Shown: piece after piece, positions 7,919 to 35,248 of the stretch
Numbering within the stretch: position 1 is the first letter of the stretch
Layout: the number at the start of each line of letters is the position of its first letter
Origin: an uncultured Flavobacteriales bacterium
Lineage (GTDB): Bacteria > Bacteroidota > Bacteroidia > Flavobacteriales > UBA7312
Reading direction: 5' to 3'
DNA length: 57,737 nt
Assembly: GCA_964004705.1 (NCBI GenBank)
Contig: CAXFOQ010000003.1
Span: 1 to 57,737, forward strand
The notes under the pieces: generated by a model
What the model saw: the letters and a program-made list of their open reading frames with translations, nothing else
Database searches by the model: none
Told to the model about the DNA's origin: nothing
Position numbers and translations under genes: made by a program

Positions 7919-7947
7919 TATATAATACCAATGGCACTAGCTGACAA
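7919..7947 (-). promoter_or_regulatory. Leftward promoter with palindromic operator in its spacer (scaffold/coat operon)
   Basis: Minus strand: TTGTCA-gcTAGTGCCATTGGTAT-TATATA with a 17-nt spacer. Same register as the other copies. Confidence 0.55.
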
Positions 7948-7975
7948 GAAAAAAATAACAAAAAATAAAAAAAAC

Positions 7976-8004
7976 TTGACAAATAGTGCAAATGGCACTA
8001 TAAT
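7976..8004 (+). promoter_or_regulatory. Rightward promoter with palindromic operator
   Basis: TTGACA-aaTAGTGCAAATGGCAC-TATAAT, 17-nt spacer. Confidence 0.65.
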
Positions 8005-8098
8005 AACAAGGTTAGCTCACAAATTTTTTTTTAAACATAGTTAATTGATAAAGTTTTACTAATGTGGGCTAACGCCTAACTTAGATGAAAGGAAATTT

Positions 8099-8527
8099 AT
8101 GTGGTTATTTACACCCAACGCCTTTTTTAGCGTTGTAGAAGATTATAATAATAAAAAAAATTTAATGGTAAGGGCTAGATTTAAAGGGGATATTGAAAAA
8201 GTATTTAAAACAGTAAAAAATACAACCCATACCCCTCAAAATGATTATCCTTACCGTGCAAGCATACCAAAGGAAACTGTCGCTCAAGTTGTGGCAAGTA
8301 ATATTTTGCGTATTAATTATTCAAATTTTAAAGATGAAGCCCAAAATGTTTTGGGTTTGCATAAGAACAAACGTCTAGACGCTTTGCATGAAGTTTGGAG
8401 CGTTATGGTTAATGCCGGTGATGCCAGTGCTTTTAATTTTAAAGATTTTAAAATTAATAAAAAATTTAAACGTAAAACATTTGACTTTACCGATATGGGT
8501 GGGTACTTTAAATTTAGAAAACGATAA
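8099..8527 (+). CDS. Hypothetical protein
   Basis: 142-aa ORF with GGAAA upstream of the ATG. Followed by a terminator. Confidence 0.6.
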   Translation: MWLFTPNAFFSVVEDYNNKKNLMVRARFKGDIEKVFKTVKNTTHTPQNDYPYRASIPKETVAQVVASNILRINYSNFKDEAQNVLGLHKNKRLDALHEVWSVMVNAGDASAFNFKDFKINKKFKRKTFDFTDMGGYFKFRKR

Positions 8528-8574
8528 TAGTTTTTAATTACATTTAATTTCCTCCCAAGAATTAAATATTATAA

Positions 8575-8601
8575 CCCCCTATTTATTTAGGGGGTTTTTT
8601 T
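8575..8601 (+). terminator. Intrinsic terminator
   Basis: CCCCCT-atttattt-AGGGGG followed by TTTTTTT. Confidence 0.7.
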
Positions 8602-8892
8602 ATAATGGTTAAATAGTTTTTCAGCTATACGCCTACCATAATCTTCATCATAACCATACATTGTCCAAAACTTATTTTCATTGCCAACTTTATCATGCAG
8701 TTCTTGGTGGTGGTAAAAACATAAAGGCACAACATTTTTATCACTTGCCTTTAAACCCATGCCCCTATTACCATCATAAGGTTTTAATAAATGATGCGCA
8801 TTGGTTGCCCCATTACAACTTTTATGCAGTATTATGCAACGCATTCTGCTTACAAATTCTAAATAATTTCTATTTTTGTAATTTTTTTTCAT
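8587..8892 (-). CDS. HNH/DUF968-like nuclease-fold protein
   Basis: CNG..NAHHL...GMGLKASDKNVVPLCFYHHQELH (His/Cys HNH-like pattern). Start moved to MKKNYK. Confidence 0.55.
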   Translation of the reverse strand: MKKNYKNRNYLEFVSRMRCIILHKSCNGATNAHHLLKPYDGNRGMGLKASDKNVVPLCFYHHQELHDKVGNENKFWTMYGYDEDYGRRIAEKLFNHYKKTP

Positions 8893-8942
8893 AATAAAAA
8901 CAATAATATACAATTTTTTTTTAAAAAAATGTAAAAAAAGAC

Positions 8943-8971
8943 TTTACAAATAGTGCCAATGGCGCTATATT
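8943..8971 (+). promoter_or_regulatory. Promoter with palindromic operator
   Basis: TTTACA-aaTAGTGCCAATGGCGC-TATATT, 17-nt spacer. Confidence 0.65.
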
Positions 8972-9011
8972 ATATGTATAACTTAAATACAAAAACAAAA
9001 CGGAGTAACAA

Positions 9012-9386
9012 ATGAACATAGATTATACAAAAATGGTTAAATACCCAACAGAGTTCAAAAGCGTATTACCATCACATGAGCAAGCTAACGTAGCTTGGGG
9101 CGATTATGTAAACAACAAACAATCAGAACTTAAAGCAAATTTTCAGTTTGAAAGAGATTATGAAAGAAATGAAACATTAGGTACTAACGGTTATTATGCA
9201 ACTGAAAGACCAATTTGGAATGTTAAATATTTTGATGGTTATACATATGAAACTATTGGTTGTGTAACAGCTTTTGATGGTGATGAAGTAAGATGCACAT
9301 TTAAATATTTAGATGTTGAATATACAGCAAGTGGATCGCACCCATTTGAAGCATTTGAAAACGCAGTATCAAAATCATTAAGTTAA
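9012..9386 (+). CDS. Hypothetical protein
   Basis: 124-aa ORF with GGAG upstream of the ATG. Confidence 0.6.
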   Translation: MNIDYTKMVKYPTEFKSVLPSHEQANVAWGDYVNNKQSELKANFQFERDYERNETLGTNGYYATERPIWNVKYFDGYTYETIGCVTAFDGDEVRCTFKYLDVEYTASGSHPFEAFENAVSKSLS

Positions 9387-9428: not shown

Positions 9429-9767
9429 ATGGAAAACCTTTATGATAATTTTTTAATTAAATATTGTGAAGATGATATTAAAAAACATACAGAAATATTA
9501 AATGACAGAAAATGGAAATTAAGACATTTAAAATTTCAAGCAATAATGGGTAAAAGAAACGACCCAGCATACCGTATGTTTTTTATAGATTTGTATAATT
9601 ACAGTGGCGTAGATGAAACAGAAACTACTTTTGATGCTTGGTTACTACAGCCAAAATGGTGGAACTCATATGCTGAAGAAGAAAGTATAAATGATGCAAT
9701 GACTAACATAATTGATTTTTATGAAGCAGAACTTTATAGGGAAGGGGGTAATCAATATGGCTGGTAA
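9429..9767 (+). CDS. Hypothetical protein
   Basis: 112-aa ORF with an AAAGGAG RBS. Confidence 0.6.
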   Translation: MENLYDNFLIKYCEDDIKKHTEILNDRKWKLRHLKFQAIMGKRNDPAYRMFFIDLYNYSGVDETETTFDAWLLQPKWWNSYAEEESINDAMTNIIDFYEAELYREGGNQYGW

Positions 9768-10026
9768 AAAGATACACAAAGGCAACCACCATGATAATGA
9801 TTGTGAGCATTATGAAGATGAATATTTACTATCTTGCACCACAAAAACTAAAAGTGGTTTAAACATAAAGTGGGATTGTTATATGTTTGATAATTCTTGT
9901 GATGGTAAACCGGCTGAACATTCATTATGTTTAAGAATGGGCGATAGTGGTGGTGATTATATAAGCATAGATTTAAAAGACATGATTAAAATGTATCTGC
10001 GTGATAGAACCAATAGATGGGAATAG
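9757..10026 (+). CDS. Hypothetical Cys/His-containing small protein
   Basis: Start placed at MAGKK (GGGGG RBS) rather than the upstream in-frame Met. 11-nt overlap with the previous gene. Confidence 0.5.
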   Translation: MAGKKIHKGNHHDNDCEHYEDEYLLSCTTKTKSGLNIKWDCYMFDNSCDGKPAEHSLCLRMGDSGGDYISIDLKDMIKMYLRDRTNRWE

Positions 10027-10478: not shown

Positions 10479-10479
10479 T

Positions 10480-13400
10480 TTAATATTTTAAGCTACCTTC
10501 ATCAAATTTTCTTCTATATGTATTAAAAGTCATAATAACTTCATCTAATGCACGACCATCAACCCAGTTTGTGTAACCCCTTTCTTTTAAATAATTAATT
10601 ATTTCTTCAACTTCTGTTGGGCTGTCCAATCTTATAAAGTTTAAATTATCAAACAAAGAAAGTCCATTTTTAAAATTTGTTTCATTATCATTTCTTCTTG
10701 CCCATAATTTTAGTGTTTTAATACCATATGCTCTTTCACCAAAACTTTCTCCAGCCTTTACTGTATTTCCAAATCTATCCCTACTGTAAGAATGTGTATC
10801 AAGTCTTTTTAAATGATCAGCTTTCCATAATACATTGCTACTGCTATCTCTTGCTTTTTCTTTTATTCTTGTAAAAAAATAATCAGCACCACCAGTAGCT
10901 AAATCTTCCTCTGGTGACATACCATGTAAATCTATACCTTTTCTAAGTTTATCAACTGTTGGTGTCATTGTGCCACCATTATCAAAAATTTGTTTTAAAA
11001 CATCAACTTTATCTCGAGCCGTAATAACGTGTGCAATTTCATATTCTTCTTTGAATTTGCTAAATTCTTCAGTATCTAAATCAACTCTTTTTGTTAAAAT
11101 TCTTCCTTGTGTGTTTGCTTGCCAGCTACCAAAGGGATTATAACCTACCTTTTGTGTAATATCTTCACCGGTTAATTGTTTTATTTCATCAATATATGCT
11201 TGCTTTTGTTTTTCTATTGGCAATTTTGAAATGTTTTTTATTGTTTTATTATAAGCATCAAACTCATTTTTCTTTTTTATTACTCTGTATAAATCTGGAC
11301 TTTCAAAAACGTCATCTTTTAAAAACATAAATTCTTCAAGACTTTTGTGCAGTTCTACTTGATGTAATTTTCTTAAATATACAACTTCTCTATCTATATC
11401 TGAAGCCCTTTCAGCGTTAATGCCTAATTTACGCATAGTATCTAATATTTTATTATGCCCATCTACAGCATCTTCTACTTCAAATGTTAATTTGTTTTGT
11501 AATGCAAAATTATTAATATCTTTAAAATCTGTACCATCAAAATATTGTGGGAAATATGTTACTTTAACACCATCTACATTAGCTGTATAATGGTCAACAA
11601 AAATATAATCATCATCAGTTCTAACAATTCTACCTTGTGTATCAGTAACCCCAGTTATTTCACCTTTATCAAAGGTTCTTTTTTTCCATTGAAATTTTGA
11701 ATTTTTAGTCCATTTGATTGCCGACTCTTCACCTAAAACTGTAAATTCTATTTTATTTCTATTTATAAAAAAACCTCTTTCATCAAGTAGTTTTTTAAAA
11801 TTAGCTGGTGGGTTATAAAAAGCTGGTGTTGAAGTTGTTACTTTATCACTAAGTCTATACTGTTCTAAAAACTCAATAATGTTTTCATTTGCGCTTCTAG
11901 CATTCATGAGATTTGCACTGTCAGCTACAGATAATTTGCCTTTTAATTCAAGATTTATTGATTTGTTTACGTTTGTATATTTTAAAATAAGTTCATCAGC
12001 ATTTGAAAATGTATATGGAGCTAATTTATCACCTTTTGCTGTTCTAGCTTGTATGCTTTTCAGTGTATTTATTAACATACTGTCATCTGAACTTACATCA
12101 AAACCACTTTTTATTGTTCCAGATTTTCTAACCGTTTTGGTTAGTTCCTCACTAACATTTCCCCTTATTTTTGTATATGCTCTTACTGTACGCTTTGATG
12201 TTTCTTCTGCAAAATCATTATGAAAATGTATCAACTGGTCTTCTATTTGGTCTTTATCTATAGCTAAACTATAACCATTTGCACCAGACTTTTTTATGGC
12301 ATCTTTTTCTGTTTGTACTATCTCTTTAGCAAGTGGTGTTGGGGTTTTTCTGTTTAATTGATCTAATTGTGGTTTAAATCTTTTTGCTAAATCATTTTTT
12401 CTGCCAATAAGTTTTTCAGTTATTTCATCAACCATATTAGCTGGTAATATTTCTGCTACAACATTTCGTATTTCATCATCAGTAATTTTTACTATTTTTG
12501 CTACGCCTACTGCTATTTTATCATTATTTAAATTTTTAAAAACTTCTGTTGCATTTGGGTTTATTGAACTTGTGCGCAAACTTCTTATTTCAAGAACAGA
12601 GTTTTTAGAAAAATCTTTTAATTCACCCTTTGCCCTATATATTAAAGAACCACCAGTGTCTAACCTTAAAGCCCCACTGCCATCTTTTAGCCGTTTTAAA
12701 TTTAATGATTTTGCACCACCTTCACCAATAACGTCCCAATTAGCAAGCCAAGCATCTACAGCAAAGTTTTCATCTACACCATTTAAACCAATCATGTCTT
12801 GCACTTCAATATCATCAACATCTTCTATTTTGCTTGCAATTCCAATTCGGTTTATTTTTGTACCACCAATTTCACCATCAATATTTATTATTTTTAAGCG
12901 TGGTACACGAACACCAGCCATTTCATATAATCTTGCAGATAACATTTCAATATATGTTCTTTGTATTTCTTCTGGTGATTTTATATAATATTTTATACCA
13001 GTGGTTTTATCTTTAAATGTACCACCTAAATTACTACCACCTTGCCCACCAACTTGTTCCATGTTTGAAAACAACAACTGCTGGTCATTAGCTTCATCTA
13101 CTGCAACAATACCATCTTGTTTTTTGCCAGCTTTTGCTATTTTAGCTTGTATAGCTGTATCTACTTCAGAAAATTGTTCATCATTTAAACTATCTAACCA
13201 CTTTTGTTCGCCTTTTGTTAATGCTTTACCTTGCGCACTTTTTGTTGAAACAACGCTTTTTAAACTATTAAAATCAGCTAATTTTTTTACTGCTACAGCT
13301 TCTTGTTCAATAAATTCAAGTAAATCAACAAAATCAGCTTGAAGTATTGGGTTTTTTTCTTTTATTAATTTTTGATAAACTTTTTTCTGCGTTAATTTGC

Positions 13401-15549
13401 CACTACCTTTGCCAGCAGTTAATATAAATTCTAATTTTTCTTCAGCCTTTTCATTTAATAAATTAAATTTTTTATTTACTTTTAACTGCGCTTCTTTTGC
13501 ATAATTTATATATAAATCTTGCGTTTTTAAATCTGCTAAAGCTGTACCTTGTGCTTTTAATACTTTGCCTTCTTCACCTAAATTTTTTAATACTTTTACA
13601 TTTAGACTTGGCGCAATCTTTTCGCCCTTTAGAAAATTACTTATTGCTGTACTTGGGCTAGAAAAATAACCATCTGGATAAATTTCATCAGCCAAAATTT
13701 TTAATTTAGCTGGGCTGTAACTTAATATTTCTTGGTTAAAAGACAAAACATCTATATATGCTTGTTTTTGCATTATTTTTATTTCATTTATTCTAGCAAT
13801 AGCTTTTTCCATTGCAGAAATATCTTTTAAGTCTGTACTGAAAACAATATATGAAACTTGATTTACAATATTATCGCCAAATACTTTATTTTTAAAAATT
13901 TCTTTTGTATATTGTATTTCTTTTTGTAATGATTTTTGTAACGCACTTACTTTTAAATTAGTTGATTTTAAATCTTGTATTTCATCTTTTAAATCTTGCG
14001 TTAGCCCAGCCAAAGTTTTTTCTTCACTTGGGCTTAATTTTTTACCCTCTTTTATTTTCTTTTTAATTGTAGAAACTTTTGCTGTAAAATTTAAATTATC
14101 TACATCAGCTTGAATTGCCGATACTTTTTCTTGTTTGCTTAAATCTTGCCAACCAGACTTCTTACTTAACTTATTATATGCTTTCTGGTGGTTTTTAAAG
14201 CCGGTAACGCCCCCAATAAACTTATTTAGTAGTTCATTAGCCTTATCTTCTTTTACAGCCAAATTTGCTTGTTCTATGGCTTTATTTTTAGCCTCTTGCC
14301 TTGCTAAATCTTTTGCAACTTTGCTGGCTTGTGCAATACTTGTTTTACCTTCATCTATTAATGCAATAAGTTCTTCTAAACTTAATGGGTTGTTACGCTG
14401 GTCAACCAAATCAACAAATCCAATTTTACCATCATTCCATAACTGCCAGCGCCCATCACCAAGAACTTCTTTTTGTATGCTTACGCTTTTTGTTTTTAAC
14501 CAAGTCTCGTATGTAAGTTCGCCAGCAACTTGTCCGGTCATGCTTGCTTGCATACCACGCTTTATTTTTTTTGCTTCACCCAATGGTATGCCACTTGCCA
14601 CTAAAGCATCTTCAAAACCTTTTCTAAACTTTCTATTATTAAAAGTTAAATCTTTACCGGCAAGTTCACTGAAAGATTTTAACATTGGAACAATTACTGA
14701 ACGACAATTATAATGGGCTGGTGGTGTTCTATAGTTTTTTTTATGCCCAATAGGGTTTTTATTACTATCCCAAGTTAAACCACTGTATGATTTGCATATA
14801 TCACTGGTTCTTGTGTCAAGCGTTGAAAGCCATTGATAACCTTTAATGATATCAATATTTCTATCTATGGTTGTTTGCCTTGCTTTATTGCTTACTGCAT
14901 GAACACTTGTGCGCACTAATGCTTCAGCTTGGTAACGCTTGACATTCATTATGCCATCTTTAAAATTATTGGCTTTTGTACCCCTTACCCTACGCACCAA
15001 ATCACCAATACTTTCATTTGCTAATATGCCTTCACGCATTGCATCAGTAAATCTTTCAACTAAATCACCAGCTTGCCTTTGCCAGTGTGTTTTAACTGGT
15101 GCAGACATAACTAAAGTGTCATCAACTAACGCTTGCAATGTTGTGGGAGGTGGTAAAAATTGAACTAATGCAACACCAATTTTAGGATTATTGGCTACGG
15201 CTTTACCAACACCGTTTGCTAAAACTTTAGGTTCAAGTTTAGCAACATCTTTTAAACTATCTTTAAATTTAGAATTTATATCACCGTACTGTGCTTTTAT
15301 TGTAGCCCTTACATTTGCAAGTAATTTGGTAAACCTTTTTTGTCTTGCTTTGCCACCAACAGCAGTAACATCTATTTTTTTTATTTTTTCTTCTAAATCT
15401 ATTTCAAGTTTATCTAATAATTGAAATACCTTTTGGTACTCACTTGATTTTAACCTTTCAAGATTTACAGCATGAGTAATAATATTATCGGCAACTTTAT
15501 CATTAGCGCCAGTTATATTACCAACTGGGTTAGGTCTGCCAACTGCCAT
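10480..15549 (-). CDS. Giant head-morphogenesis (MuF/SPP1 gp7 family) fusion protein with about 1,300 aa of C-terminal extension
   Basis: 1,689 aa. ATG overlaps the portal stop. MuF hallmarks ...ALVRTSVHAVSNKAR...YQWLSTLDTRTSDIC...PPAHYNCRSVIVP. Then Lys-rich coiled-coil repeats, a kinase-like segment and an unassigned C-terminal region. Confidence 0.8.
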   Translation of the reverse strand: MAVGRPNPVGNITGANDKVADNIITHAVNLERLKSSEYQKVFQLLDKLEIDLEEKIKKIDVTAVGGKARQKRFTKLLANVRATIKAQYGDINSKFKDSLKDVAKLEPKVLANGVGKAVANNPKIGVALVQFLPPPTTLQALVDDTLVMSAPVKTHWQRQAGDLVERFTDAMREGILANESIGDLVRRVRGTKANNFKDGIMNVKRYQAEALVRTSVHAVSNKARQTTIDRNIDIIKGYQWLSTLDTRTSDICKSYSGLTWDSNKNPIGHKKNYRTPPAHYNCRSVIVPMLKSFSELAGKDLTFNNRKFRKGFEDALVASGIPLGEAKKIKRGMQASMTGQVAGELTYETWLKTKSVSIQKEVLGDGRWQLWNDGKIGFVDLVDQRNNPLSLEELIALIDEGKTSIAQASKVAKDLARQEAKNKAIEQANLAVKEDKANELLNKFIGGVTGFKNHQKAYNKLSKKSGWQDLSKQEKVSAIQADVDNLNFTAKVSTIKKKIKEGKKLSPSEEKTLAGLTQDLKDEIQDLKSTNLKVSALQKSLQKEIQYTKEIFKNKVFGDNIVNQVSYIVFSTDLKDISAMEKAIARINEIKIMQKQAYIDVLSFNQEILSYSPAKLKILADEIYPDGYFSSPSTAISNFLKGEKIAPSLNVKVLKNLGEEGKVLKAQGTALADLKTQDLYINYAKEAQLKVNKKFNLLNEKAEEKLEFILTAGKGSGKLTQKKVYQKLIKEKNPILQADFVDLLEFIEQEAVAVKKLADFNSLKSVVSTKSAQGKALTKGEQKWLDSLNDEQFSEVDTAIQAKIAKAGKKQDGIVAVDEANDQQLLFSNMEQVGGQGGSNLGGTFKDKTTGIKYYIKSPEEIQRTYIEMLSARLYEMAGVRVPRLKIINIDGEIGGTKINRIGIASKIEDVDDIEVQDMIGLNGVDENFAVDAWLANWDVIGEGGAKSLNLKRLKDGSGALRLDTGGSLIYRAKGELKDFSKNSVLEIRSLRTSSINPNATEVFKNLNNDKIAVGVAKIVKITDDEIRNVVAEILPANMVDEITEKLIGRKNDLAKRFKPQLDQLNRKTPTPLAKEIVQTEKDAIKKSGANGYSLAIDKDQIEDQLIHFHNDFAEETSKRTVRAYTKIRGNVSEELTKTVRKSGTIKSGFDVSSDDSMLINTLKSIQARTAKGDKLAPYTFSNADELILKYTNVNKSINLELKGKLSVADSANLMNARSANENIIEFLEQYRLSDKVTTSTPAFYNPPANFKKLLDERGFFINRNKIEFTVLGEESAIKWTKNSKFQWKKRTFDKGEITGVTDTQGRIVRTDDDYIFVDHYTANVDGVKVTYFPQYFDGTDFKDINNFALQNKLTFEVEDAVDGHNKILDTMRKLGINAERASDIDREVVYLRKLHQVELHKSLEEFMFLKDDVFESPDLYRVIKKKNEFDAYNKTIKNISKLPIEKQKQAYIDEIKQLTGEDITQKVGYNPFGSWQANTQGRILTKRVDLDTEEFSKFKEEYEIAHVITARDKVDVLKQIFDNGGTMTPTVDKLRKGIDLHGMSPEEDLATGGADYFFTRIKEKARDSSSNVLWKADHLKRLDTHSYSRDRFGNTVKAGESFGERAYGIKTLKLWARRNDNETNFKNGLSLFDNLNFIRLDSPTEVEEIINYLKERGYTNWVDGRALDEVIMTFNTYRRKFDEGSLKY

Positions 15550-18606: not shown

Positions 18607-18640
18607 TTCTTTTATAGCGTATAAAAAATAGTTAAAAACC

Positions 18641-18653
18641 TAGCCAATGGCTA
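18641..18653. promoter_or_regulatory. Degenerate operator-like palindrome upstream of terS
   Basis: TAGCCA-A-TGGCTA followed by TATATAT. Resembles the TAGTGCCA-A-TGGCACTA operator but lacks 2 nt in each arm. Confidence 0.25.
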
Positions 18654-19049: not shown

Positions 19050-19535
19050 TTACTGTATAACAGAAAACGATATGATCCAGACCATCCACCCTACAGCCCC
19101 TAAACCAATTAAAAGTGCTAAACCAATTATCGTATAATCTCTAATCATTTTTTTTTGTTCTTCACGAGCATAAATAGCTTCTTGCCTAGCTTTTCTTATG
19201 CGCCCTTCTTCTTTTAATAAGTTATCCCACGCTTGCAATCCATAATGACCAACTAACCAGTTTTTAAGTTCTTCTCTTTGTTTTTGAACTTTTATTTTTG
19301 CGCTGTAACTGTTCATGGCTACTTCTTCAACAGAGCCATTAAATAATTTATCAAATGTAGACGGATTGTTTGAACTTTTATTTATATTATCAATATCTGA
19401 AACTGCGCCCATCCACTTGCCCAGCGTATCGGACATTTCTTCTATATCCTTGCCGGTTTGTATAAGTTTTTTTATTTGCCCATAGGTTTGTGTTGCCACC
19501 GTAACAGCAGTTCCCAATGTAATAGGGTCTATCAT
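19050..19535 (-). CDS. Hypothetical protein with C-terminal transmembrane helix
   Basis: 161 aa. C-terminal IIGLALLIGLGAVGWMVWIISF. Confidence 0.55.
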   Translation of the reverse strand: MIDPITLGTAVTVATQTYGQIKKLIQTGKDIEEMSDTLGKWMGAVSDIDNINKSSNNPSTFDKLFNGSVEEVAMNSYSAKIKVQKQREELKNWLVGHYGLQAWDNLLKEEGRIRKARQEAIYAREEQKKMIRDYTIIGLALLIGLGAVGWMVWIISFSVIQ

Positions 19536-19556: not shown

Positions 19557-19585
19557 TTTACAAGTAGTGCCATATGCACTATATT
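19557..19585 (+). promoter_or_regulatory. Promoter with palindromic operator (variant centre)
   Basis: TTTACA-agTAGTGCCATATGCAC-TATATT, 17-nt spacer. Confidence 0.6.
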
Positions 19586-19619: not shown

Positions 19620-19844
19620 ATGAGAAAATTTAACCAACATGACTTAAACGAGTATGAAATGAACATACTTGCAAACGCTGATTACTTTACACTTGTTAGG
19701 TTTGCCGGAAGAGGTAAATTTATTACAGAAAAATTTACAAGTTTAAATGTACTAAAAAGTTTTGCAGACCAATATACACATAATTATATGGTTTATGCTT
19801 GCACAAATGAGGGGCGTGATGCACCTATTGGTGATTATAGTTAG
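19620..19844 (+). CDS. Hypothetical protein
   Basis: 74-aa ORF with an AAGAGG RBS. Its stop overlaps the stop of the convergent speD by 4 nt. Confidence 0.55.
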   Translation: MRKFNQHDLNEYEMNILANADYFTLVRFAGRGKFITEKFTSLNVLKSFADQYTHNYMVYACTNEGRDAPIGDYS

Positions 19845-22832: not shown

Positions 22833-23075
22833 CTAGCGCTGGTATGTTTGTACCTCCGAAATATGCTCTTTTGGCTTGTTGGGCTTCATGTAAAGAATAC
22901 GCCTTGCTTGGCTTTCTGTAATACCAAAATGTTCAGCTACATCGTCTAAGGTATATTTTTTTGATGTTTTACGTCTTAAATGTACACCGGTTTCAGCAAC
23001 ATATTTCACTTTGCCTTTATTTTCTTGCCAATGTGTTTTTACCTTATCAATAAATTCATCGGAAAATTTAGTCAT
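22833..23075 (-). CDS. HTH DNA-binding protein
   Basis: YTLDDVAEHFGITESQARRILY is HTH-like. Start set at the MTKFS ATG, which overlaps the upstream stop (TAATG). Confidence 0.5.
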   Translation of the reverse strand: MTKFSDEFIDKVKTHWQENKGKVKYVAETGVHLRRKTSKKYTLDDVAEHFGITESQARRILYMKPNKPKEHISEVQTYQR

Positions 23076-25447: not shown

Positions 25448-25804
25448 TTAAATTACTGGGTTAAAAACATTTAATCTTGCATTTTCTTTTTCGTGCTTCA
25501 ATAGCCCTTTATCAAATAATGCTATCGCATCTTGATCGTTTTTAAAACCATATTCTGATGCAAAATTAATTGATGAACTATATTTAATGCCTTTTGGGTG
25601 TAAACCTTTTTTCCTAAAAAGGTATGCAACCATATCCGGTGTTTTTGCCCAAGCAATTAATTTTTCTTTACTAAAAAAAGAAATGCCACCATGTTCTGCA
25701 ACCATATAATCTATTGGCGCTTTTTTACCATTATGTTCAAACATAATAAAAGTTGATTGTTGTGTTCTTTTTTCTAACAATCTTTTTATTTTATTTTTAT
25801 TCAT
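25448..25804 (-). CDS. Hypothetical protein, first gene of the leftward early operon
   Basis: Start set at MNKNKIKRLL (GGAGA RBS). The upstream extension in the track covers promoter sequence. Confidence 0.55.
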   Translation of the reverse strand: MNKNKIKRLLEKRTQQSTFIMFEHNGKKAPIDYMVAEHGGISFFSKEKLIAWAKTPDMVAYLFRKKGLHPKGIKYSSSINFASEYGFKNDQDAIALFDKGLLKHEKENARLNVFNPVI

Positions 25805-25840
25805 TTTTTTTCTCCATAAAAAAAAGTTTAAGTTTTGCCT

Positions 25841-25868
25841 ATTATAAACTAATAAAAAAATAATGCAA
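25841..25868 (-). promoter_or_regulatory. Leftward sigma70-type promoter without the TAGTGCCA operator
   Basis: Minus strand: TTGCAT, 16-nt spacer, TATAAT. Confidence 0.4.
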
Positions 25869-25879
25869 GTATTTTTTTT

Positions 25880-25893
25880 TGCAAATTTTTGCA
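25880..25893. promoter_or_regulatory. Palindrome between divergent promoters
   Basis: TGCAAA-TT-TTTGCA with perfect 6-bp arms. Confidence 0.35.
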
Positions 25894-25911
25894 TTTAGTT
25901 GAAAATAACTG

Positions 25912-25940
25912 TTGACAAGTAGTGCCAATGGTGCTATACT
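25912..25940 (+). promoter_or_regulatory. Promoter with palindromic operator
   Basis: TTGACA-agTAGTGCCAATGGTGC-TATACT, 17-nt spacer. Confidence 0.7.
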
Positions 25941-25973
25941 ATAATCATAATAAATTTAAAGAAAGGAAAAAAT

Positions 25974-26135
25974 ATGTATAGAATTTATTATTATGAAAAT
26001 ATTAGTGGTTTAGGATTTTGGAACCAATATGGAAGTAAAAATTTCAAAACTGAACAATCTGCTTTAAATGAAGTTAAAAAATTAAGGGAGAAAGGTAAAC
26101 TTCAAAATTATAATATTAAAATAATAAAAGATTAA
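25974..26135 (+). CDS. Small protein (53 aa, untracked)
   Basis: AAGGAAAAAATATG start. MYRIYYYENISGLGFWNQYGSKNFKTEQSALNEVKKLREKGKLQNYNIKIIKD. Flanked by a promoter and a hairpin. Confidence 0.45.
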   Translation: MYRIYYYENISGLGFWNQYGSKNFKTEQSALNEVKKLREKGKLQNYNIKIIKD

Positions 26136-26143
26136 TAATATAA

Positions 26144-26179
26144 ACCCATTGCAAATTTATGAATATTTTTGCAATGGGT
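26144..26179 (+). terminator. Strong 12-bp hairpin (possible terminator, no U-tract)
   Basis: ACCCATTGCAAA-12 nt-TTTGCAATGGGT, immediately before the next promoter. Confidence 0.45.
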
Positions 26180-26181: not shown

Positions 26182-26210
26182 TTGACAAGTAGTGCCAATG
26201 GTGCTATATT
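26182..26210 (+). promoter_or_regulatory. Promoter with palindromic operator (near-identical to 25912..25940)
   Basis: TTGACA-agTAGTGCCAATGGTGC-TATATT. Confidence 0.7.
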
Positions 26211-26250: not shown

Positions 26251-26499
26251 ATGTTAGGAACTAAAATAAAAGACGATGCAATAGAAGCAATACAGCAAGA
26301 CTTTGTTGTTAAATTTTCAGCTTTAATTAAAGAAGAATTTAAAAAGTTGGAAAAAGCACCATCAGTTAAAGGACTTTTAAAATTTGAAAAAGGTAATGAT
26401 GGACTAGACCAAATGTTAGCTGGAAGTTTAGAACTAATGTTTGAAGGTGCAATGACCCAAAAAACTATGGATAAATGGGTTAAGGCGCTTAACCAATAA
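26251..26499 (+). CDS. Hypothetical protein
   Basis: 82-aa ORF with an AAAGG RBS. Confidence 0.55.
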   Translation: MLGTKIKDDAIEAIQQDFVVKFSALIKEEFKKLEKAPSVKGLLKFEKGNDGLDQMLAGSLELMFEGAMTQKTMDKWVKALNQ

Positions 26500-26512
26500 T
26501 AACTTAAACCAA

Positions 26513-26532
26513 GCCCCAGCGAAAGCTGGGGC
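26513..26532 (+). other. Intercistronic GNRA-tetraloop hairpin
   Basis: GCCCCAGC-GAAA-GCTGGGGC, immediately before the AGAAAGGA RBS of the DUF932 gene. No U-tract. Confidence 0.5.
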
Positions 26533-26545
26533 AGAAAGGAAAATT

Positions 26546-27643
26546 ATGAAACAAGATATTAATTTAATTGAACTAGCTAAAAAGCTAGAGGTAAATAAAG
26601 CAAAGAAAAAAGATATTGTTTTATCTACAGATAGATTAACTTTAGAAAAATCTATTACAAATAATGATTTGGCATTTGGCATTAATTCAGATGAAATGCC
26701 AAGTTCGCAATTAGCTATTAGCGATGTAGCGCATACGCAGATTGCTTCGCATTTAGATATACCTAAAAGGTATTATGATAAAATGCGTTTTGAAGATAAC
26801 CAATCTTTATTAAAAGAAAACATAAAGCATTGGTTTGAAAAAAACCCAAAACCAAGAATGTTACGTTTATTTGATGAAGGTAAAAATGAACTAACCGGTA
26901 TTGAAAAATATACTTGTAGGGCTTTTTTAAGCGATAAATATAAGCGCATTGATAATGAGTTAATTGCAGAGGGTGCATTACCAGCGCTACAAGAAATGCC
27001 AAATGTACAAATTAAAAGTTGCAGTTTAACTGATAAAAATATGTACATTAAAGCAGTTTTGCCACAACTTTCAGCCATTGTAAAAGAGGGCGATGTTGTA
27101 CAATCTGGATTACTTATTAGAAATTCAGAAGTTGGCTTTGGCGCAGTAGAAGTAAGTATGCTGATATATAGGCTAGTTTGTGATAACGGTTTAGTTGTAC
27201 AAGATGGCTCAACTCGTAAAACTCATATTGGTACAAAATTAAGTGAAAGTTATGATTTATTAAGTACCGAAACATTAATTGCAGATGCACATACGCTTAA
27301 ATTGGCAATTAGGGATATTGTAAAAAACACTGCAAACGAAGTATTGTTTCTTTCAAATGTTAAAAAAATGAAAGAACTTTCAGAAAGCAGTGAAATGAAT
27401 AAGCCTAATGAAAGCATTAAAATTTTAGCTAAACAATATGGTTTAGCTGAAAATGAACAAGAGGGTGTATTGGCTTCCTTAATTAAAGGTGGTGATTTAA
27501 CTGCATGGGGAATGCTAAATGCAGTTACCGATTATAGCAAAAAAGCTGATAGCTATGAAAGGGCTACTGAGTTAGAGCGAATTGGTGGCAAAATACTTGA
27601 TTTAAACCCCAACCAATGGAAGGTTCTGCAAGAAGTAGCCTAA
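26546..27643 (+). CDS. DUF932-family protein
   Basis: RAFLSDKYKRIDN... and GLLIRNSEVGFGAVEVSMLIYRLVCDNGLV match the DUF932 signature (SEVG...RLVCxNG). Confidence 0.7.
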   Translation: MKQDINLIELAKKLEVNKAKKKDIVLSTDRLTLEKSITNNDLAFGINSDEMPSSQLAISDVAHTQIASHLDIPKRYYDKMRFEDNQSLLKENIKHWFEKNPKPRMLRLFDEGKNELTGIEKYTCRAFLSDKYKRIDNELIAEGALPALQEMPNVQIKSCSLTDKNMYIKAVLPQLSAIVKEGDVVQSGLLIRNSEVGFGAVEVSMLIYRLVCDNGLVVQDGSTRKTHIGTKLSESYDLLSTETLIADAHTLKLAIRDIVKNTANEVLFLSNVKKMKELSESSEMNKPNESIKILAKQYGLAENEQEGVLASLIKGGDLTAWGMLNAVTDYSKKADSYERATELERIGGKILDLNPNQWKVLQEVA

Positions 27644-27660
27644 CATACCTAAAAATAAAA

Positions 27661-27683
27661 AAGGGGGCTTTATGCCCCTTTTT
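27661..27683 (+). terminator. Intrinsic terminator
   Basis: AAGGGGGC-tttat-GCCCCTT followed by a T-run. Confidence 0.65.
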
Positions 27684-27685: not shown

Positions 27686-27714
27686 TTGCTTTTTAGTGCA
27701 TTTGGCACTACATT
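27686..27714 (+). promoter_or_regulatory. Weaker promoter copy with palindromic operator
   Basis: TTGCTT-ttTAGTGCATTTGGCAC-TACATT. The -10 ends only 6 nt before the tracked ATG, so the transcript is leaderless or uses the internal Met. Confidence 0.5.
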
Positions 27715-27720: not shown

Positions 27721-27984
27721 ATGAAAAGAATAGGTGATGAAATGGATTTAAACCCAAAAGAATTTAAGAAAAGTATTGAAAATGTTTTTGGCTGGGGTTC
27801 ACAACGTAAATTTAGCAAGTTGTTAGGAAGAAACGAATCTACAGTTAGAAGATGGATAGCCGGTAGCCGTGCTATACCACCGGAAATGCCTTTGATACTA
27901 GCGCTATTAAATGAAAGAAGACAATTAGGTTTAAATGGCAGTATTGATATTAAAAGACATTTAGAGTTGATTTTAGAAAAATAA
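27721..27984 (+). CDS. Cro/CI-type HTH regulator candidate
   Basis: QRKFSKLLGRNESTVRRWIAGSRAIP is HTH-like. Has its own operator-bearing promoter and a terminator. Confidence 0.5.
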   Translation: MKRIGDEMDLNPKEFKKSIENVFGWGSQRKFSKLLGRNESTVRRWIAGSRAIPPEMPLILALLNERRQLGLNGSIDIKRHLELILEK

Positions 27985-28049: not shown

Positions 28050-28077
28050 AGGGGCTATGTCAGTAGCCCCTTTTTTT
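28050..28077 (+). terminator. Intrinsic terminator
   Basis: AGGGGCTA-tgtcag-TAGCCCCT followed by TTTTTT. Confidence 0.7.
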
Positions 28078-31858: not shown

Positions 31859-31870
31859 TGGCACTAAAAT
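31859..31870 (+). promoter_or_regulatory. Operator half-site (TGGCACTA) fused to TAAAAT
   Basis: Only the right arm is conserved and there is no good -35. Confidence 0.25.
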
Positions 31871-31873: not shown

Positions 31874-31902
31874 TTGCATTACTAACATAAAGGTGTTATA
31901 TA
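31874..31902 (+). promoter_or_regulatory. Sigma70-type promoter for the recombination operon
   Basis: TTGCAT, 17-nt spacer, TATATA. Lies 36 nt before the exonuclease ATG. Confidence 0.45.
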
Positions 31903-31937: not shown

Positions 31938-32948
31938 ATGAAACAAGTTGATAAATACCCAACTATTCAAGCAAAAGTACACAAAAATGTACAGCATGGT
32001 AGCGCAGAGTGGTTGGAGTTAAGAAAAAAATATACAAGTGGCACTGATAGCCCTGTGTTAATGGAAAAAAGCAATTTTAAAAGCCCATTTACTCTTTGGC
32101 ATGAAAAATCTGGTTTGTTAGAAGATGGTTTTAAAGATAACAACCGTATGCTTTGGGGGCGCAGATTAGAAAGCGCTATAAGAGATGGTGTTGCTGAAGA
32201 TATGGGTTATAATTTACTTGAAGATGTTTGGGTAAGTAATAACACATATTACACTTTGGAAGAAAGCAAACTTGGCGCTACACCGGACGCAGTATTGGCT
32301 TACCCATCGAAGTTTGTAAATGACAAACTTGGGAAAGAACAAGAGGGGCATGGTGTTTTTGAAATAAAAAATGTTGATGGATTAATACATAAGCAACAAT
32401 GGACAGAAAATGAACCACCAGTTCAATATATAATACAACTACAACATTATATGTATGTTTTGGGTTATAGCTGGGGCGTTTTAACTGCATTGGTTAATGG
32501 CAATACTACTTACACTTATTGTTATGAATTACATCAGCCAACAGTAAACCTTATAAGAAATAATAGTTTTTTATTTTGGGATTACTTAAACAGTGGTAGG
32601 CAATGCCCATATAGCGCTGACAGCACCACCAGCACCACTAACACACTTAAATCGTTGTATCCTTCTCAAAACGGTGAAACGCTGGACAAAACGCAAGACA
32701 ACAAGTTTACAACATTAGTTACTAATTTTGTTCATGCAAAACAAAATCATAAAGATGCAACTAAAAATTTGGCAGAATGCAAAAATTTATTGCAAGCAGA
32801 AATAGCCGATAATTCTTTAATAGAATGTAATGTATTTGATAACGGTTTAAACAAAAAACACTTAATAAAACAAACAACTTCGGAAGTATCTGAATATACA
32901 GTTAAAGCAAGAACGCAAACCAGTTTTACAGTTAAGGAGATAAAATAA
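31938..32948 (+). CDS. YqaJ-type (lambda Exo-like) recombination exonuclease
   Basis: GSAEWLELRKKYTSGTDSPVLM..., ATPDAV..., GVFEIKNV are YqaJ / PD-(D/E)xK hallmarks. Confidence 0.75.
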   Translation: MKQVDKYPTIQAKVHKNVQHGSAEWLELRKKYTSGTDSPVLMEKSNFKSPFTLWHEKSGLLEDGFKDNNRMLWGRRLESAIRDGVAEDMGYNLLEDVWVSNNTYYTLEESKLGATPDAVLAYPSKFVNDKLGKEQEGHGVFEIKNVDGLIHKQQWTENEPPVQYIIQLQHYMYVLGYSWGVLTALVNGNTTYTYCYELHQPTVNLIRNNSFLFWDYLNSGRQCPYSADSTTSTTNTLKSLYPSQNGETLDKTQDNKFTTLVTNFVHAKQNHKDATKNLAECKNLLQAEIADNSLIECNVFDNGLNKKHLIKQTTSEVSEYTVKARTQTSFTVKEIK

Positions 32949-33715
32949 TGGCAAAACTTAATGCACCAAAAATAGTAAAAGAACTTTTAAACGAATTAAA
33001 TATTTATGACCAAACCCATATTTGGCAACATAAGCAATCTAAACAATATATTATTAAACACATGGCTTTAGAAAAAATTGCTACACATAAAAAAATTGTT
33101 TTTGATATGCCACAAATAATAGAGGCAGATAGTAAAAACGAAATAGCAGTTGTTTGTGTAAAAGGCAAAATGGGTAATGTTGAAGAATGGTCAATAGGTG
33201 AAGCCAGCCCAAAAAATAATTTTAACCCTTATTGTTTTGCTATGGCAGAAAAAAGAGCAAAGGATAGGGTGATACTTAAACTTATTGGGTTACATGGTGA
33301 AGTTTATTCCAGCGCTGAAATGATGGAAGAAGAACCTAAAGAGCAACCTAAAGAAGAACCTAAAGATACTAGCAAAAGTAGCAAATTAGATGACCTTGCA
33401 AAAGAAGATAATAAAGTAATTGAATTAATAAAAAGTAAATTACCAAAAGCTATACTTAAAATAGATGGCAAGTTAAGCAAAGATGATGCAAGCAAGTGGA
33501 GCGCATTAGTTAAACAACATATAGCTGATGCCAATAATTTTGTAACGCTTACTGAAATTACTAATGAAGTAAATGAAGTTTGGAATGATAATGATGATGT
33601 GCAAGTTATACAAAACTTGTGTCAAAAGATATTTAGCGATGGCATATTACCAAGAGCGCATGAGTTGCAAGTAAGGCTTGAGTTAGATAAATACAAAAAC
33701 TTACTAAAAAAATAA
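32948..33715 (+). CDS. Putative single-strand annealing protein
   Basis: Sits between the exonuclease and SSB (ATG overlaps the exo stop). CFAMAEKRAKDRVILKLIGL block. Acidic/Lys-rich middle. Confidence 0.5.
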   Translation: MAKLNAPKIVKELLNELNIYDQTHIWQHKQSKQYIIKHMALEKIATHKKIVFDMPQIIEADSKNEIAVVCVKGKMGNVEEWSIGEASPKNNFNPYCFAMAEKRAKDRVILKLIGLHGEVYSSAEMMEEEPKEQPKEEPKDTSKSSKLDDLAKEDNKVIELIKSKLPKAILKIDGKLSKDDASKWSALVKQHIADANNFVTLTEITNEVNEVWNDNDDVQVIQNLCQKIFSDGILPRAHELQVRLELDKYKNLLKK

Positions 33716-33726
33716 GGAGAAAAAAT

Positions 33727-34134
33727 ATGAGTATTTGTACAATAACACTGTTGGGCAATTTAACAAAAGATGCTGAATTGCGTGAAAACGACTATGGTAA
33801 ATTTTTAAATTTTAGCATAGCTAACAATATGGGTTTTGGTGATAATAAAACCACCACCTTTTTTAACTGCACCTACTATTCTAAAGGCGCAGAAAATTTT
33901 AAACAATATTTAACTAAAGGCACTACATTAATGATTACCGGTGAATTTACTACCAATGAATATCGTGCAAAAGATAGTGGTGAATTAAGGATTGGTTTAA
34001 ATATAAAAGTGCAAGGAATTGGCTTTGGCAGTAAAAAAGAAGATAATGATAATTTTGATGAAGTGCCGGCTAAAGACATAAGCGATGAACAACCAGCACA
34101 AGAAGAGGATTTAGACGATGAAATACCATTCTAG
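33727..34134 (+). CDS. ssb: Single-stranded DNA-binding protein
   Basis: OB-fold N-terminus ITLLGNLTKDAELRE...FSIANN and the canonical acidic tip DDEIPF. Confidence 0.85.
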   Translation: MSICTITLLGNLTKDAELRENDYGKFLNFSIANNMGFGDNKTTTFFNCTYYSKGAENFKQYLTKGTTLMITGEFTTNEYRAKDSGELRIGLNIKVQGIGFGSKKEDNDNFDEVPAKDISDEQPAQEEDLDDEIPF

Positions 34135-34333
34135 TGAGGAAGATTTTATTGATGCGCACTATAATGATACATGGCTTACTGTTGAGCAAGTTGCTCAACA
34201 GTTAAGTTGTAGCCAGCGTAAAGTTTATAATATGATAGAAAACAAAGATATTTTAAGCAAAAAGTTTGGTGGCGCTAGGCGCATAAGCAAAATAAGTTTA
34301 AACAAATATATTTATGAAAGCCCAAGTAATTAG
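34118..34333 (+). CDS. Excisionase/MerR-type HTH protein
   Basis: WLTVEQVAQQLSCSQRKVYNMIENKDI...GGARRI. Confidence 0.55.
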   Translation: MKYHSSEEDFIDAHYNDTWLTVEQVAQQLSCSQRKVYNMIENKDILSKKFGGARRISKISLNKYIYESPSN

Positions 34334-34341
34334 AGGAAAAA

Positions 34342-34632
34342 ATGAAACTAAACCCAATAATATTTATTGCATTACTTTTAATAAGTTGTGCAAAACCTAA
34401 TAATGAGATTGTGCAATGGTCACCTATTGTAGACCCACGCACAAGTAAGAACCCAGCAGAAATAGTTCGTGATACTGTTGAGTGTGAAAAGTTAATAGAA
34501 AGCGAAAAAGTTAAAATAAAAGACTACAACGATTTTTGGCACGATTACTATAATCTTATGCCCAAAAGCTATAACCCACTTGTGGCGTGTTTAAGGGGGC
34601 GTGGACATAGCGTTATAAACTGGACTAGCTAA
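34342..34632 (+). CDS. Lipoprotein
   Basis: Signal peptide with lipobox: MKLNPIIFIALLLISC. Confidence 0.65.
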   Translation: MKLNPIIFIALLLISCAKPNNEIVQWSPIVDPRTSKNPAEIVRDTVECEKLIESEKVKIKDYNDFWHDYYNLMPKSYNPLVACLRGRGHSVINWTS

Positions 34633-34731
34633 CTTTTTTTTATTTATCACTAACCTTTGAACAACACTGCTACCTTCTCGACAGAGGGTAGTGGCAGACC
34701 TTAAAGGAATAAACAAAAAAAAGAGAGTTAA

Positions 34732-35211
34732 ATGGACAATTCAATAAGTAAAAAATATTATAAATACCATACCAAAGAAATTGATAATTTTATTGCAAGA
34801 TGCACGAAAAAAACAGATGGCGATTATGATTACAAATGCTCTAAAAAATATATTAATACTGCTGAATGGAGCGACTCAAGCAAATTTACACCGGTTGTAA
34901 GCACAATAGTAAAAAACAACCCCTATAATTATAATAAACTAATAAACGAAAAGCTACTACCAGCAGAACTAGAAAAATTAAAAATAAATGCAGAATATGT
35001 AATTTTAGCTAAAAGAAGAGGTTATTTTAAAAACAGCTATTATAGTTATGCAAGAATACAGTGCATTTTATGGGTTAGTTTGGAATATCATCAATTTATG
35101 ATTAATGAATATAATAAAAAATGGAATATTTTTAATGATTTAAATAAGTTTAAAACCGTTGATATGCCTACAAAATTAAAAGAATTGCAAAAAAAATTTA
35201 AAAAAAATTAA
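34732..35211 (+). CDS. Hypothetical protein
   Basis: 159-aa Lys/Tyr/Asn-rich ORF with a GAGAG RBS. Confidence 0.5.
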   Translation: MDNSISKKYYKYHTKEIDNFIARCTKKTDGDYDYKCSKKYINTAEWSDSSKFTPVVSTIVKNNPYNYNKLINEKLLPAELEKLKINAEYVILAKRRGYFKNSYYSYARIQCILWVSLEYHQFMINEYNKKWNIFNDLNKFKTVDMPTKLKELQKKFKKN

Positions 35212-35219
35212 AAAAACAC

Positions 35220-35248
35220 TTGTAATGTAGTGCCAATGGCACTATATT
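35220..35248 (+). promoter_or_regulatory. Promoter with a perfect palindromic operator
   Basis: TTGTAA-tgTAGTGCCAATGGCAC-TATATT. Confidence 0.65.

Follow-up and report, generated by a model that had tools for sequence, protein, structure and literature searches.

The 57,737-nucleotide stretch of DNA analysed here (hereafter the window; contig CAXFOQ010000003.1 of assembly GCA_964004705.1, filed under an uncultured Flavobacteriales bacterium) contains eight copies of a 29-bp promoter-like element, scattered between positions 7919 and 35248, in which the 17-nt spacer is filled by an inverted repeat. The question that this locus raises is whether the inverted repeat is an operator and, if so, which protein reads it. 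PHROG and Pfam scans identify the window as the genome of an uncultured marine siphophage with 33% GC; its sequence is present in marine metagenomes, megablast found no near-identical cultured phage, and the best portal match, at 38% identity, was to Pseudanabaena and Dinoroseobacter phages. An initial annotation of this DNA had proposed a phage-wide regulon controlled by a dimeric repressor, for which three phage helix-turn-helix (HTH) proteins or a host protein were considered. We computed the distribution of the sites, their conservation, the fold of the candidate proteins, and the co-occurrence and co-variation of protein and operator. On the strength of these sequence comparisons we consider it somewhat probable that the spacer operator is bound by the 87-aa HTH protein encoded at 27721-27984, which would repress the eight promoters.

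Results

Eight promoter-like elements share a palindromic spacer

A palindrome search that allowed up to three mismatches recovered all eight 29-bp elements of the initial annotation (Table 1), with the consensus TTGACA-N2-TAGTGCCA-A-TGGCACTA(TA)TAAT. The palindrome TAGTGCCANTGGCACTA, with three or fewer mismatches, occurs eight times in the window as compared to 0.24 occurrences expected from dinucleotide-preserving shuffles, none of which reached eight; five full 29-mers lie within three mismatches of the consensus, with 0 expected. When a weight matrix was built from the eight sites and compared with shuffled controls, a check that the initial annotation had proposed, the sites stood above the background, with scores of 29-46 bits (9-44 bits with leave-one-out) versus 16.9 bits for the best match among 50 shuffled genomes; the next-best real match in the window, at 8.0 bits, is intragenic. 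The geometry is as previously described in that the spacer measures 17 nt in 8/8 elements and in that each element heads a transcription unit, i.e., all eight sites are intergenic and directed, in the correct orientation, at a start codon located 6-95 nt downstream. A perfect 8-1-8 palindrome, which had been attributed to every copy, is found only at 35228-35244; the seven other sites have one or two mismatches, and each of them retains one perfect 8-bp arm. The final two bases of the palindrome double as the first two of the -10 box.

As is typical for sigma-70-type promoters, the elements have hexamers at a spacing of 17 +/- 1 nt and are located upstream of, and facing, a gene. In a sigma-70 consensus scan, the best matches in the region are copies of the element (12/12, 11/12, and 11/12 positions), and six of the eight elements pass at 9-12/12 positions; the hexamers of the seven promoters other than that of the HTH gene itself match the consensus at 9-12/12 positions. 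The elements can hence be read as putative sigma-70-type promoters, and the set extends beyond early-looking units, with 7919-7947 heading the scaffold and major-capsid genes. A sigma-54 promoter (TGGCAC-N5-TTGC, GG/GC 10 nt apart) was considered and rejected; the opposite strand reads TGGCAC-N4-TTGC in some relatives, so that the spacing is too short by one base, and the window has TGTC or TGTA in place of the -12 GC. TTGCAAA, considered as a second motif, is over-represented, yet mostly intragenic on both strands, and was set aside as compositional.

The designation "phage-wide" overstates the extent of the regulon, as the palindrome is absent from no fewer than three good sigma-70-like promoters. 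These are TTGCAT-17-TATATA at 31874-31902 (+), which heads the recE/ssb operon, TTGCAT-16-TATAAT at 25868-25841 (-), which serves a minus-strand unit starting at 25804, and TTGCAA-17-TAAACT at 25250-25222 (-), which serves a minus-strand unit starting at 25202; translation of ORF 25448-25894 probably begins at the ATG at 25804. The reported absence of the element from the interior of the late operon holds for full sites, but six isolated 8-bp arms (TAGTGCCA or its complement) are found within late structural genes (at 4541, 7786, 50444, 52666, 53471, and 53771), as compared to approximately one expected by chance across the whole window. Two sites had also been listed as degenerate relatives of the element. 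The first, at 18641-18653 upstream of terS, probably does not belong with the others; it is a shorter, 13-bp palindrome (TAGCCAATGGCTA) with a minus-strand T-run after it, the terS upstream regions of the diverged relatives (L008, L010/L027, L028, and L029, a comparison that does not extend to the closest relative) do not contain it, and it is probably the minus-strand terminator of the upstream gene, outside the regulon. The second, listed as 31859-31870, is a lone arm (31859-31866), which is located upstream of a palindrome-free promoter and the function of which is doubtful.

A further motif, AACTTAAA(C), was observed at 8980, 9385, 10036, 19597, 19603, 26501, 31909, and 36268 (+) as well as at 25208 and 28334 (-). 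Intergenic DNA, which accounts for approximately 6% of the genome, holds 10/19 copies. The motif starts 6-11 nt past the -10 box of several promoters, with or without the palindrome, and would thus be located at or near transcript 5' ends; it loosely resembles the "epsilon" leader of T7 gene 10.

The element is conserved in a phage family

An exact-match scan of IMG/VR yielded 25 loci, a number that we judged to be near chance for so short a pattern. The match was in the same promoter register in 8/25 loci, and seven of these eight are relatives of the window. Searches with the HTH protein, the methyltransferase, and RecE added further loci. At one end of the resulting family is a relative that is 95% identical (32% GC), at the other are phages with a GC content of 46-51% and a protein identity of 45-70%, and the relatives carry 3-8 copies each at matching intergenic positions, including (i) the gap between the scaffold gene and the homologue of 8099, in both directions, (ii) the gap of the 19050/19620 homologues, and the positions (iii) upstream of the DUF932 gene, (iv) upstream of the HTH gene, and (v) downstream of the ssb region. 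In L008 and L010, the scaffold gene likewise follows a minus-oriented copy, with TTGTCA as its -35 box, and a plus-oriented copy is found at the position matching 7976-8004. The gap that matches 19557-19585 contains an exact palindrome in L002, L006, L008, L010, L015, L024, and L029, the element upstream of the DUF932 gene is kept in L026, L027, L131, and L132, and the element at 35220-35248 represents, in L016/L128, a homology island amid swapped genes. By comparison, approximately 0.8 Mb of unrelated phage loci from the same scan contained only two chance-like matches. Judging from these sequences, the element is a trait of the phage family. Other exact IMG/VR matches were discounted, including L019, where the match lies inside an 809-aa ORF, and L003, which has a single ambiguous site and no HTH gene nearby. 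The 13-mers and TGGCACTATAAT were also searched for in the literature, where no occurrence was found.

Across 35 family sites, both arms of the palindrome carry 1.0-2.0 bits per position, except for position 22 (0.27 bits), while positions 4-6 of the -35 box carry approximately 0.5-0.65 bits. Within the -35 box, the first, second, and third base of TTG occur in 34, 35, and 27 sites, and within the -10 box, T1, A2, and A4 occur in 35, 35, and 33 sites, respectively. The palindrome thus holds more information than the -35 box, and since contacts of RNA polymerase with the spacer do not explain conservation of the arms, it is likely that something else reads the palindrome. Departures from symmetry concentrate at -15/-14, where they create TGn (an extended -10) or G(-14), which fits a sequence that doubles as promoter and operator; at 25912-25940, two departures create such an extended -10. 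The proposal that the promoter spacer holds the operator of a dimeric repressor consequently gains support from conservation down to 45-50% protein identity and over 32-51% GC, from the information content of the palindrome relative to that of the -35 box, and from the absence of the element from the unrelated phage loci.

One explanation that does without a trans-acting factor is that duplication and recombination spread the element as a mobile promoter cassette, or that its palindrome deals with read-through as a weak terminator or RNA hairpin. Homology with the 95%-identical relative does break at or beside elements (19538, 25771-26149, and 34686-35297, as compared with L128, L031, and L016), the 53-aa gene 25974-26135 is an extra cassette between two promoters (25912-25940 and 26182-26210) that are 28/29 identical, whereas the closest relative has a single promoter there, and two copies of the element were flagged as terminator-like. 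A cassette that merely spreads would not account for a palindrome that is kept while GC shifted from 33% to 51% and while the -35 box and flanks drifted, and recombination, which does seem to occur at the elements, may well simply follow from their conservation. With regard to a hairpin, the palindrome is located upstream of the start site of its own promoter, most copies lack a T-run, and proper terminators are already present ahead of several sites. We therefore give an origin without a trans-acting factor scarcely any credence, although the conserved elements may act as recombination points for swaps of gene cassettes.

The HTH gene 27721-27984 is the likely source of the binding protein

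The choice of binding protein among three phage HTH genes or a host protein can be narrowed to 27721-27984, while the two other genes and a host protein are disfavoured. The product of 27721-27984 is encoded by the only HTH gene that is common to all relatives, with 44-53% identity. Candidate 22833-23090 has only a weak match to sigma-70 region 4, and 34118-34333 encodes a genuine HTH_17 (MerR-like) protein; no homologue of either is present in the relatives in which the sites are kept. Other annotated proteins that occur family-wide, i.e., an AdoMet decarboxylase, a PDDEXK nuclease, a TSCPD-domain protein, and a fusion of a ParB-like nuclease and a methyltransferase, were rejected, as none is transcription-factor-like.

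The promoter of the HTH gene carries the palindrome in every lineage (L026, L027/L131, L028, L029, L121-L123, L129, and L132, counted as six lineages), and an in-frame ATG follows 5-7 nt past its -10 box. In none of these lineages is there a ribosome-binding site between the -10 box and the ATG, or room for one, so that the transcript is probably leaderless, and it is probably also self-repressed. The terminator-like hairpin directly upstream of this promoter, a comparable form of which precedes the homologous cassette in Paracoccus phage vB_PkoS_Pkon1 (hereafter Pkon1), appears to insulate the HTH unit from the DUF932 operon; with a second, GC-rich hairpin on the other side, the HTH gene would be a stand-alone single-gene unit. 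A symmetric operator that overlaps the core promoter, with a copy at the promoter of the repressor gene itself, is a feature of XRE/Cro-type repressors, and both parts of this arrangement were found here.

The AlphaFold2 model of the 27721-27984 protein has five helices and a mean pLDDT of 83.6. Foldseek identified fold-level matches to HigA2, C-controller proteins, Aca2/10/11, lambda cI, and phage HTH_XRE or Cro/C1 proteins, with probabilities of 0.98-1.0 for HigA2, SO3848, and Aca10 and of 0.91 for C.Kpn2I and Aca2; matches in BFVD were also to HTH_XRE and Cro/C1 proteins. The product is thus predicted, from this model, to have the HTH fold of the XRE/Cro superfamily, and its structural neighbours (HigA2, C-proteins, Aca2/10/11, and lambda cI) are dimeric operator-binding repressors. 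At the sequence level, matches to Pfam YdaS/Cro and PHROG repressor models were below threshold, and no match was found among solved structures, including those of Cro, cI, and Aca. An exhaustive profile search identified approximately 1000 distant relatives, some of which match YdaS/Cro, HTH_3, and CI-repressor models; distant members of the family (P0011 and P0024) match PF15943, HTH_3, and Phage_CI_repr. The most distant homologue, P0011 (locus L127), has no related palindrome nearby and was considered uninformative. The 27721-27984 protein is the likely binder of the palindrome, and the protein family and its operator appear to be undescribed.

Protein and operator co-occur and co-vary in otherwise unrelated phages

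The IMG/VR contig 3300010206_000012 (65-67% GC) has no other protein in common with the window, but contains an exact palindrome in a TTGCAA...TAATTT promoter that heads an operon, the third gene of which encodes a 68-aa homologue of the HTH protein (hhalign probability 92%, E 5e-7). A query alignment that included this homologue led to 29 loci of a wider HTH branch with the signature MTPxEFK...RTVRRWE. Among the loci with the "RT" signature (the "RTVRRW" branch), 13/24 have TTGACA/TTGCAA-N2-TAGGGCCAWTGGCCCTA-TATT upstream on the same strand; the operator in this R branch has the form T(A/C)GGGCCAWTGGCCCTA-TATT and is located 0.27-1.27 kb upstream of the HTH gene. In Pkon1, which is cultured and temperate, TTGACA-ac-TAGCGCCATTGGCGCTA-AATC is found behind a terminator and heads the two-gene cassette p72-p71(HTH), which is flanked by the holin and amidase genes; the Pkon1 genome contains no other copy.

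Operator base 4, and with it the symmetric base 14, varies with residue 2 of the recognition helix, which is S40 in the window. Serine or threonine occurs with T (27/35 sites in the family of the window and the single site of 3300010206_000012), arginine occurs with G (13/13 sites), and glutamine occurs with C (Pkon1, 1/1 site). The HTH protein of 3300010206_000012 is 55-64% identical to the R branch and approximately 32% identical to the protein of the window; because it is closer to the R branch, its pairing of threonine with T represents a second, independent instance. An arginine-guanine pair is a classic direct-readout contact. The sequences hence suggest an apparent rule of specificity that links one residue to one base (S/T-T, R-G, and Q-C).

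These data also bear on two explanations that assign the palindrome to a different protein. According to the first, another phage protein binds the palindrome, with 19620-19844 (74 aa) and 8099-8527 (142 aa) as candidates, and the HTH gene is merely one of the regulated genes. Both genes are kept in diverged relatives, always directly behind a site, and have no family annotation; on the other hand, neither product has a DNA-binding signature, no homologue of either was detected in the fetched DNA of 3300010206_000012, which has both an exact operator and an HTH homologue, and the Pkon1 cassette comprises only p72 and the HTH gene p71. As the co-variation between residue and base is that of the HTH protein, we find this explanation quite unlikely. 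According to the second, the palindrome is the site of a host transcription factor, which would tie the promoters to a host signal, and the phage HTH protein is unrelated to it. Phages are known to borrow host regulators, e.g., through LexA boxes. An exact-match scan for TAGTGCCANTGGCACTATA in the genomes of 185,579 bacterial and archaeal species, however, returned only 12 matches, which is approximately the number estimated by chance; none of these has a -35 box, no genome contains more than one, none belongs to a prophage relative, and the scan revealed neither a host regulon nor a prophage copy. In addition, the operator is constant in phages that range from 32% to 67% GC and very probably infect different hosts, and its variants track a residue of a phage protein. 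Control by a host factor is thus very unlikely, and the HTH protein encoded at 27721-27984 remains our preferred binder.

With regard to the Pkon1 cassette itself, this region (L165, MK291442.1, 44143-44620) is reverse-oriented and has its own terminator and promoter and a perfect palindrome; p72 encodes 62 aa with a hydrophobic C-terminal stretch and p71 encodes the HTH homologue. The p72-p71 pair looks like an autoregulated accessory (moron-like) cassette, and since Pkon1 has a separate CI/Cro pair, p71 would be a local autoregulator rather than an immunity repressor.

Genome context and other features

The modules recognised by PHROG and Pfam scans are listed in Table 1. No integrase or partition gene was found among the scanned proteins, which included every ORF of at least 243 aa. 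The search for a sigma factor or a phage RNA polymerase, which extended to the 1080-aa tail of the 1689-aa head protein, was also negative, and the window contains no tRNA genes or Rfam families. The 1689-aa head-morphogenesis (MuF/SPP1 gp7-like) protein is encoded at 10480-15549 (-), and its C-terminal extension of approximately 1080 aa, which lacks a recognisable domain, is conserved over its entire length in relatives. An S-adenosylmethionine decarboxylase gene (speD-like; 19841-20185, minus strand) adjoins the gene for the ParB-like nuclease/DNA methyltransferase fusion (20182-21498, minus strand), and both genes are kept across the family. Directly ahead of the terS ATG, at a distance of 2-5 nt, the 12-mer ACGCTATAAAAG (18609-18620, minus strand) occurs once in the window and is strictly conserved in five diverged relatives (L008, L010, L027, L028, and L029); it could represent the -10 box of a late promoter with leaderless terS, or a translation or packaging signal. 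At 56920-57737, phage sequence stops abruptly (at approximately 56920) and is joined to a C-terminal fragment of a Bmp/PnrA-like ABC-transporter substrate-binding protein (Pfam PF02608, E 8e-10), after which the DNA is GC-rich and unlike the rest of the window; this end of the stretch is a chimeric contig end or host flank.

Table 1. Putative promoter-operators, the candidate repressor gene, and other features of the window
Feature	Position	Strand	Palindrome	Description
Putative promoter-operator, scaffold/major-capsid operon	7919-7947	-	7923-7939	TTGTCA-gc-TAGTGCCATTGGTATTA-TATA; scaffold GTG start at 7896
Putative promoter-operator	7976-8004	+	7984-8000	TTGACA-aa-TAGTGCAAATGGCACTA-TAAT; sigma-70 consensus 12/12; heads 142-aa gene 8099-8527
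Putative promoter-operator	8943-8971	+	8951-8967	TTTACA-aa-TAGTGCCAATGGCGCTA-TATT; heads genes 9012-9386, 9429-9767, 9712-10026
Putative promoter-operator	19557-19585	+	19565-19581	TTTACA-ag-TAGTGCCATATGCACTA-TATT; heads 74-aa gene 19620-19844; divergent gap beside 19050-19535 (-)
Putative promoter-operator	25912-25940	+	25920-25936	TTGACA-ag-TAGTGCCAATGGTGCTA-TACT; heads 53-aa gene 25974-26135
Putative promoter-operator	26182-26210	+	26190-26206	TTGACA-ag-TAGTGCCAATGGTGCTA-TATT; extended -10; heads 26251-26499 and DUF932 gene 26546-27643
Putative promoter-operator of the HTH gene	27686-27714	+	27694-27710	TTGCTT-tt-TAGTGCATTTGGCACTA-CATT; weak hexamers; ATG 27721 6 nt past -10
Putative promoter-operator	35220-35248	+	35228-35244	TTGTAA-tg-TAGTGCCAATGGCACTA-TATT; sole perfect palindrome; heads 35291-35515, 35485-35817, 35817-36224
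Proposed repressor gene	27721-27984	+		87-aa XRE/Cro-like HTH; recognition helix E39-A47 (ESTVRRWIA)
Terminator-like hairpin with T-run	27659-27683	+		10-bp stem, 5 G-C pairs; directly upstream of HTH promoter
GC-rich hairpin with T-run	28051-28077	+		GGGGCTATGTCAGTAGCCCC; downstream of HTH gene; read from sequence; loop >8 nt
Isolated arm	31859-31866	+		TGGCACTA; 8 nt upstream of promoter 31874-31902 (recE/ssb operon); function doubtful
Scaffold and major capsid genes	7896 down to 5922	-		PHROG/Pfam
Packaging/head genes	18606 down to 10480	-		terS, terL, portal, 1689-aa MuF/gp7-like head protein; PHROG/Pfam
Primase-helicase and RusA	31836 down to 28521			PHROG/Pfam
RecE and SSB	31938-34134	+		PHROG/Pfam
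Long tail and lysis module	56730 down to 36346			PHROG/Pfam

Discussion

A model for control by the HTH protein

In the model that we favour, each element would be a strong promoter for the housekeeping RNA polymerase of the host, with a -35 box TTGnnn, a 17-nt spacer, and a -10 box TAtAaT, and the spacer would be filled by a 17-bp operator with two-fold symmetry, the last two bases of which are shared with the -10 box. A dimer of the 87-aa HTH protein would sit on this operator with one recognition helix per 8-bp arm and, by spanning -27 to -11, would prevent RNA polymerase from forming an open complex. The protein would be produced from the insulated single-gene unit, where a weak promoter carries the same operator and the transcript probably starts at the ATG; it would thereby steady its own level and, as it accumulates, shut the seven stronger promoters, which drive clusters of small genes of no assigned function, the DUF932 gene, and the scaffold/capsid operon. 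The at least three operator-free promoters, i.e., those of the recE/ssb operon and of the minus-strand units starting at 25804 and 25202, would escape the switch. What we infer from the computed data is that the protein dimerises, that it binds the operator, and that it represses the promoters rather than activating them, along with the leaderless start and the timing of these events.

The same position of the site, centred near -19 and between the hexamers, could also point to an HTH protein that activates or remodels the promoter rather than repressing it. MerR-family activators sit between the hexamers and twist the DNA, but MerR-type promoters need spacers of 19-20 nt, whereas the spacer here has the optimal length of 17 nt in 8/8 elements. 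Moreover, the fold of the protein is of the XRE/Cro rather than the MerR type, and the sole MerR-like HTH_17 gene (34118-34333) is missing from relatives. Since the hexamers of seven promoters are near consensus (9-12/12 positions) and the spacer is optimal, no activator should be needed; together with a dimer that would exclude polymerase from -27 to -11, this leads us to read the 27721-27984 protein as a repressor and to regard MerR-like activation as highly improbable.

A number of observations weigh against repression of these promoters by the HTH protein. Use of the elements as sigma-70-type promoters is assumed from consensus alone, and the RNA data consist of three short assembled contigs from two public marine metatranscriptomes that cover 26296-26886 and carry no 5'-end information. 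As for the protein, its Foldseek matches have weak E-values (0.006-0.1), which is common for domains of such small size, and scores against curated Pfam HTH families are below threshold (YdaS_toxin, PF15943, 16.9 bits versus a cut-off of 30). With regard to the pairing, 11/24 R-branch loci lack a site in the fetched DNA, the co-variation is not absolute (position 4 of the family sites is G in 5/35 and C in 3/35), and it rests on few independent lineages. Finally, a simple shut-off of early genes is awkward, as the scaffold/capsid operon would be under the same repressor as early-looking genes. The switch may serve the timing of the lytic cycle, limit the dose of early accessory genes, or silence the phage.

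Comparison with known phage regulators

Occlusion of a promoter by a repressor is a textbook mechanism, and the window provides a further example of an ordinary gene switch. In phage lambda, operators are 17 bp long and the cI mRNA transcribed from PRM is leaderless. The window resembles this system in its small HTH protein with an XRE/Cro fold, in a 17-bp operator with two-fold symmetry (8+1+8) over the core promoter, and in a repressor gene whose promoter contains an operator and whose mRNA is probably leaderless, as for cI from PRM. Unlike lambda, the window has one operator per promoter rather than three tandem cooperative sites, has neither a divergent cI/cro pair nor a recognisable integrase, and has its operators scattered over at least eight promoters across 27 kb. 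A lambda-like lysogeny switch was rejected because tandem operators and a divergent partner gene are lacking, because neither an integrase nor a partition gene was found among the scanned proteins, and because the scan of 185,579 genomes found no prophage copy.

Dispersed copies of a short site, often at promoters and read by one repressor, are shared with P1 C1, the L5 gp71 "stoperators", and the phiC31 repeats. The conserved inverted repeat of phiC31 is also 17 bp, the sites of P1 and L5 are asymmetric, and all three systems maintain lysogeny in temperate phages; by contrast, no integrase, partition system, or prophage relative was found for the phage of the window, and its site is in a fixed spacer register, fused to the -10 box. 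The six isolated arms within late genes bear a loose likeness to the L5 stoperators.

Anti-CRISPR-associated (Aca) proteins are short HTH proteins that repress strong, near-consensus promoters through an inverted repeat inside the core promoter, usually a single one; this repression, which is thought to block RNA polymerase, limits the dose of anti-CRISPR operons (PMC9410906). The window likewise has the inverted repeat inside a strong core promoter, Aca2, Aca10, and Aca11 are among the structural neighbours of its HTH protein, and in Pkon1 and 3300010206_000012 a promoter of this kind heads a small operon that ends with the gene for the HTH homologue. In the window, however, the HTH gene is monocistronic and seven further promoters are under its proposed control. 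We did not file the protein as an Aca, as no gene in these units is a known anti-CRISPR and no anti-defence partner is known.

Significance

The pairing described here provides a concrete candidate regulator and operator for an uncultured marine phage family with no known gene control, and the element marks promoters of this family in metagenomic sequence. The pairing also reaches a wider, undescribed branch of XRE-like phage regulators, which spans 32%-67% GC and includes a cultured Paracoccus phage, and 17-nt-spacer operators paired with an 87-aa repressor would be convenient orthogonal parts for engineered gene circuits. A more far-reaching possibility, which we regard as unlikely, is that the HTH protein and its operator constitute a portable self-regulating module. 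In most phages, such as Pkon1, this module would control one small accessory cassette, while in the marine phage family of the window it would have been copied into most strong promoters, including that of the capsid operon. One 87-aa protein could then silence a phage for which no integrase was found nearly completely and keep it, reversibly and without integration, dormant or in a carrier state within a low-GC marine host that is abundant.

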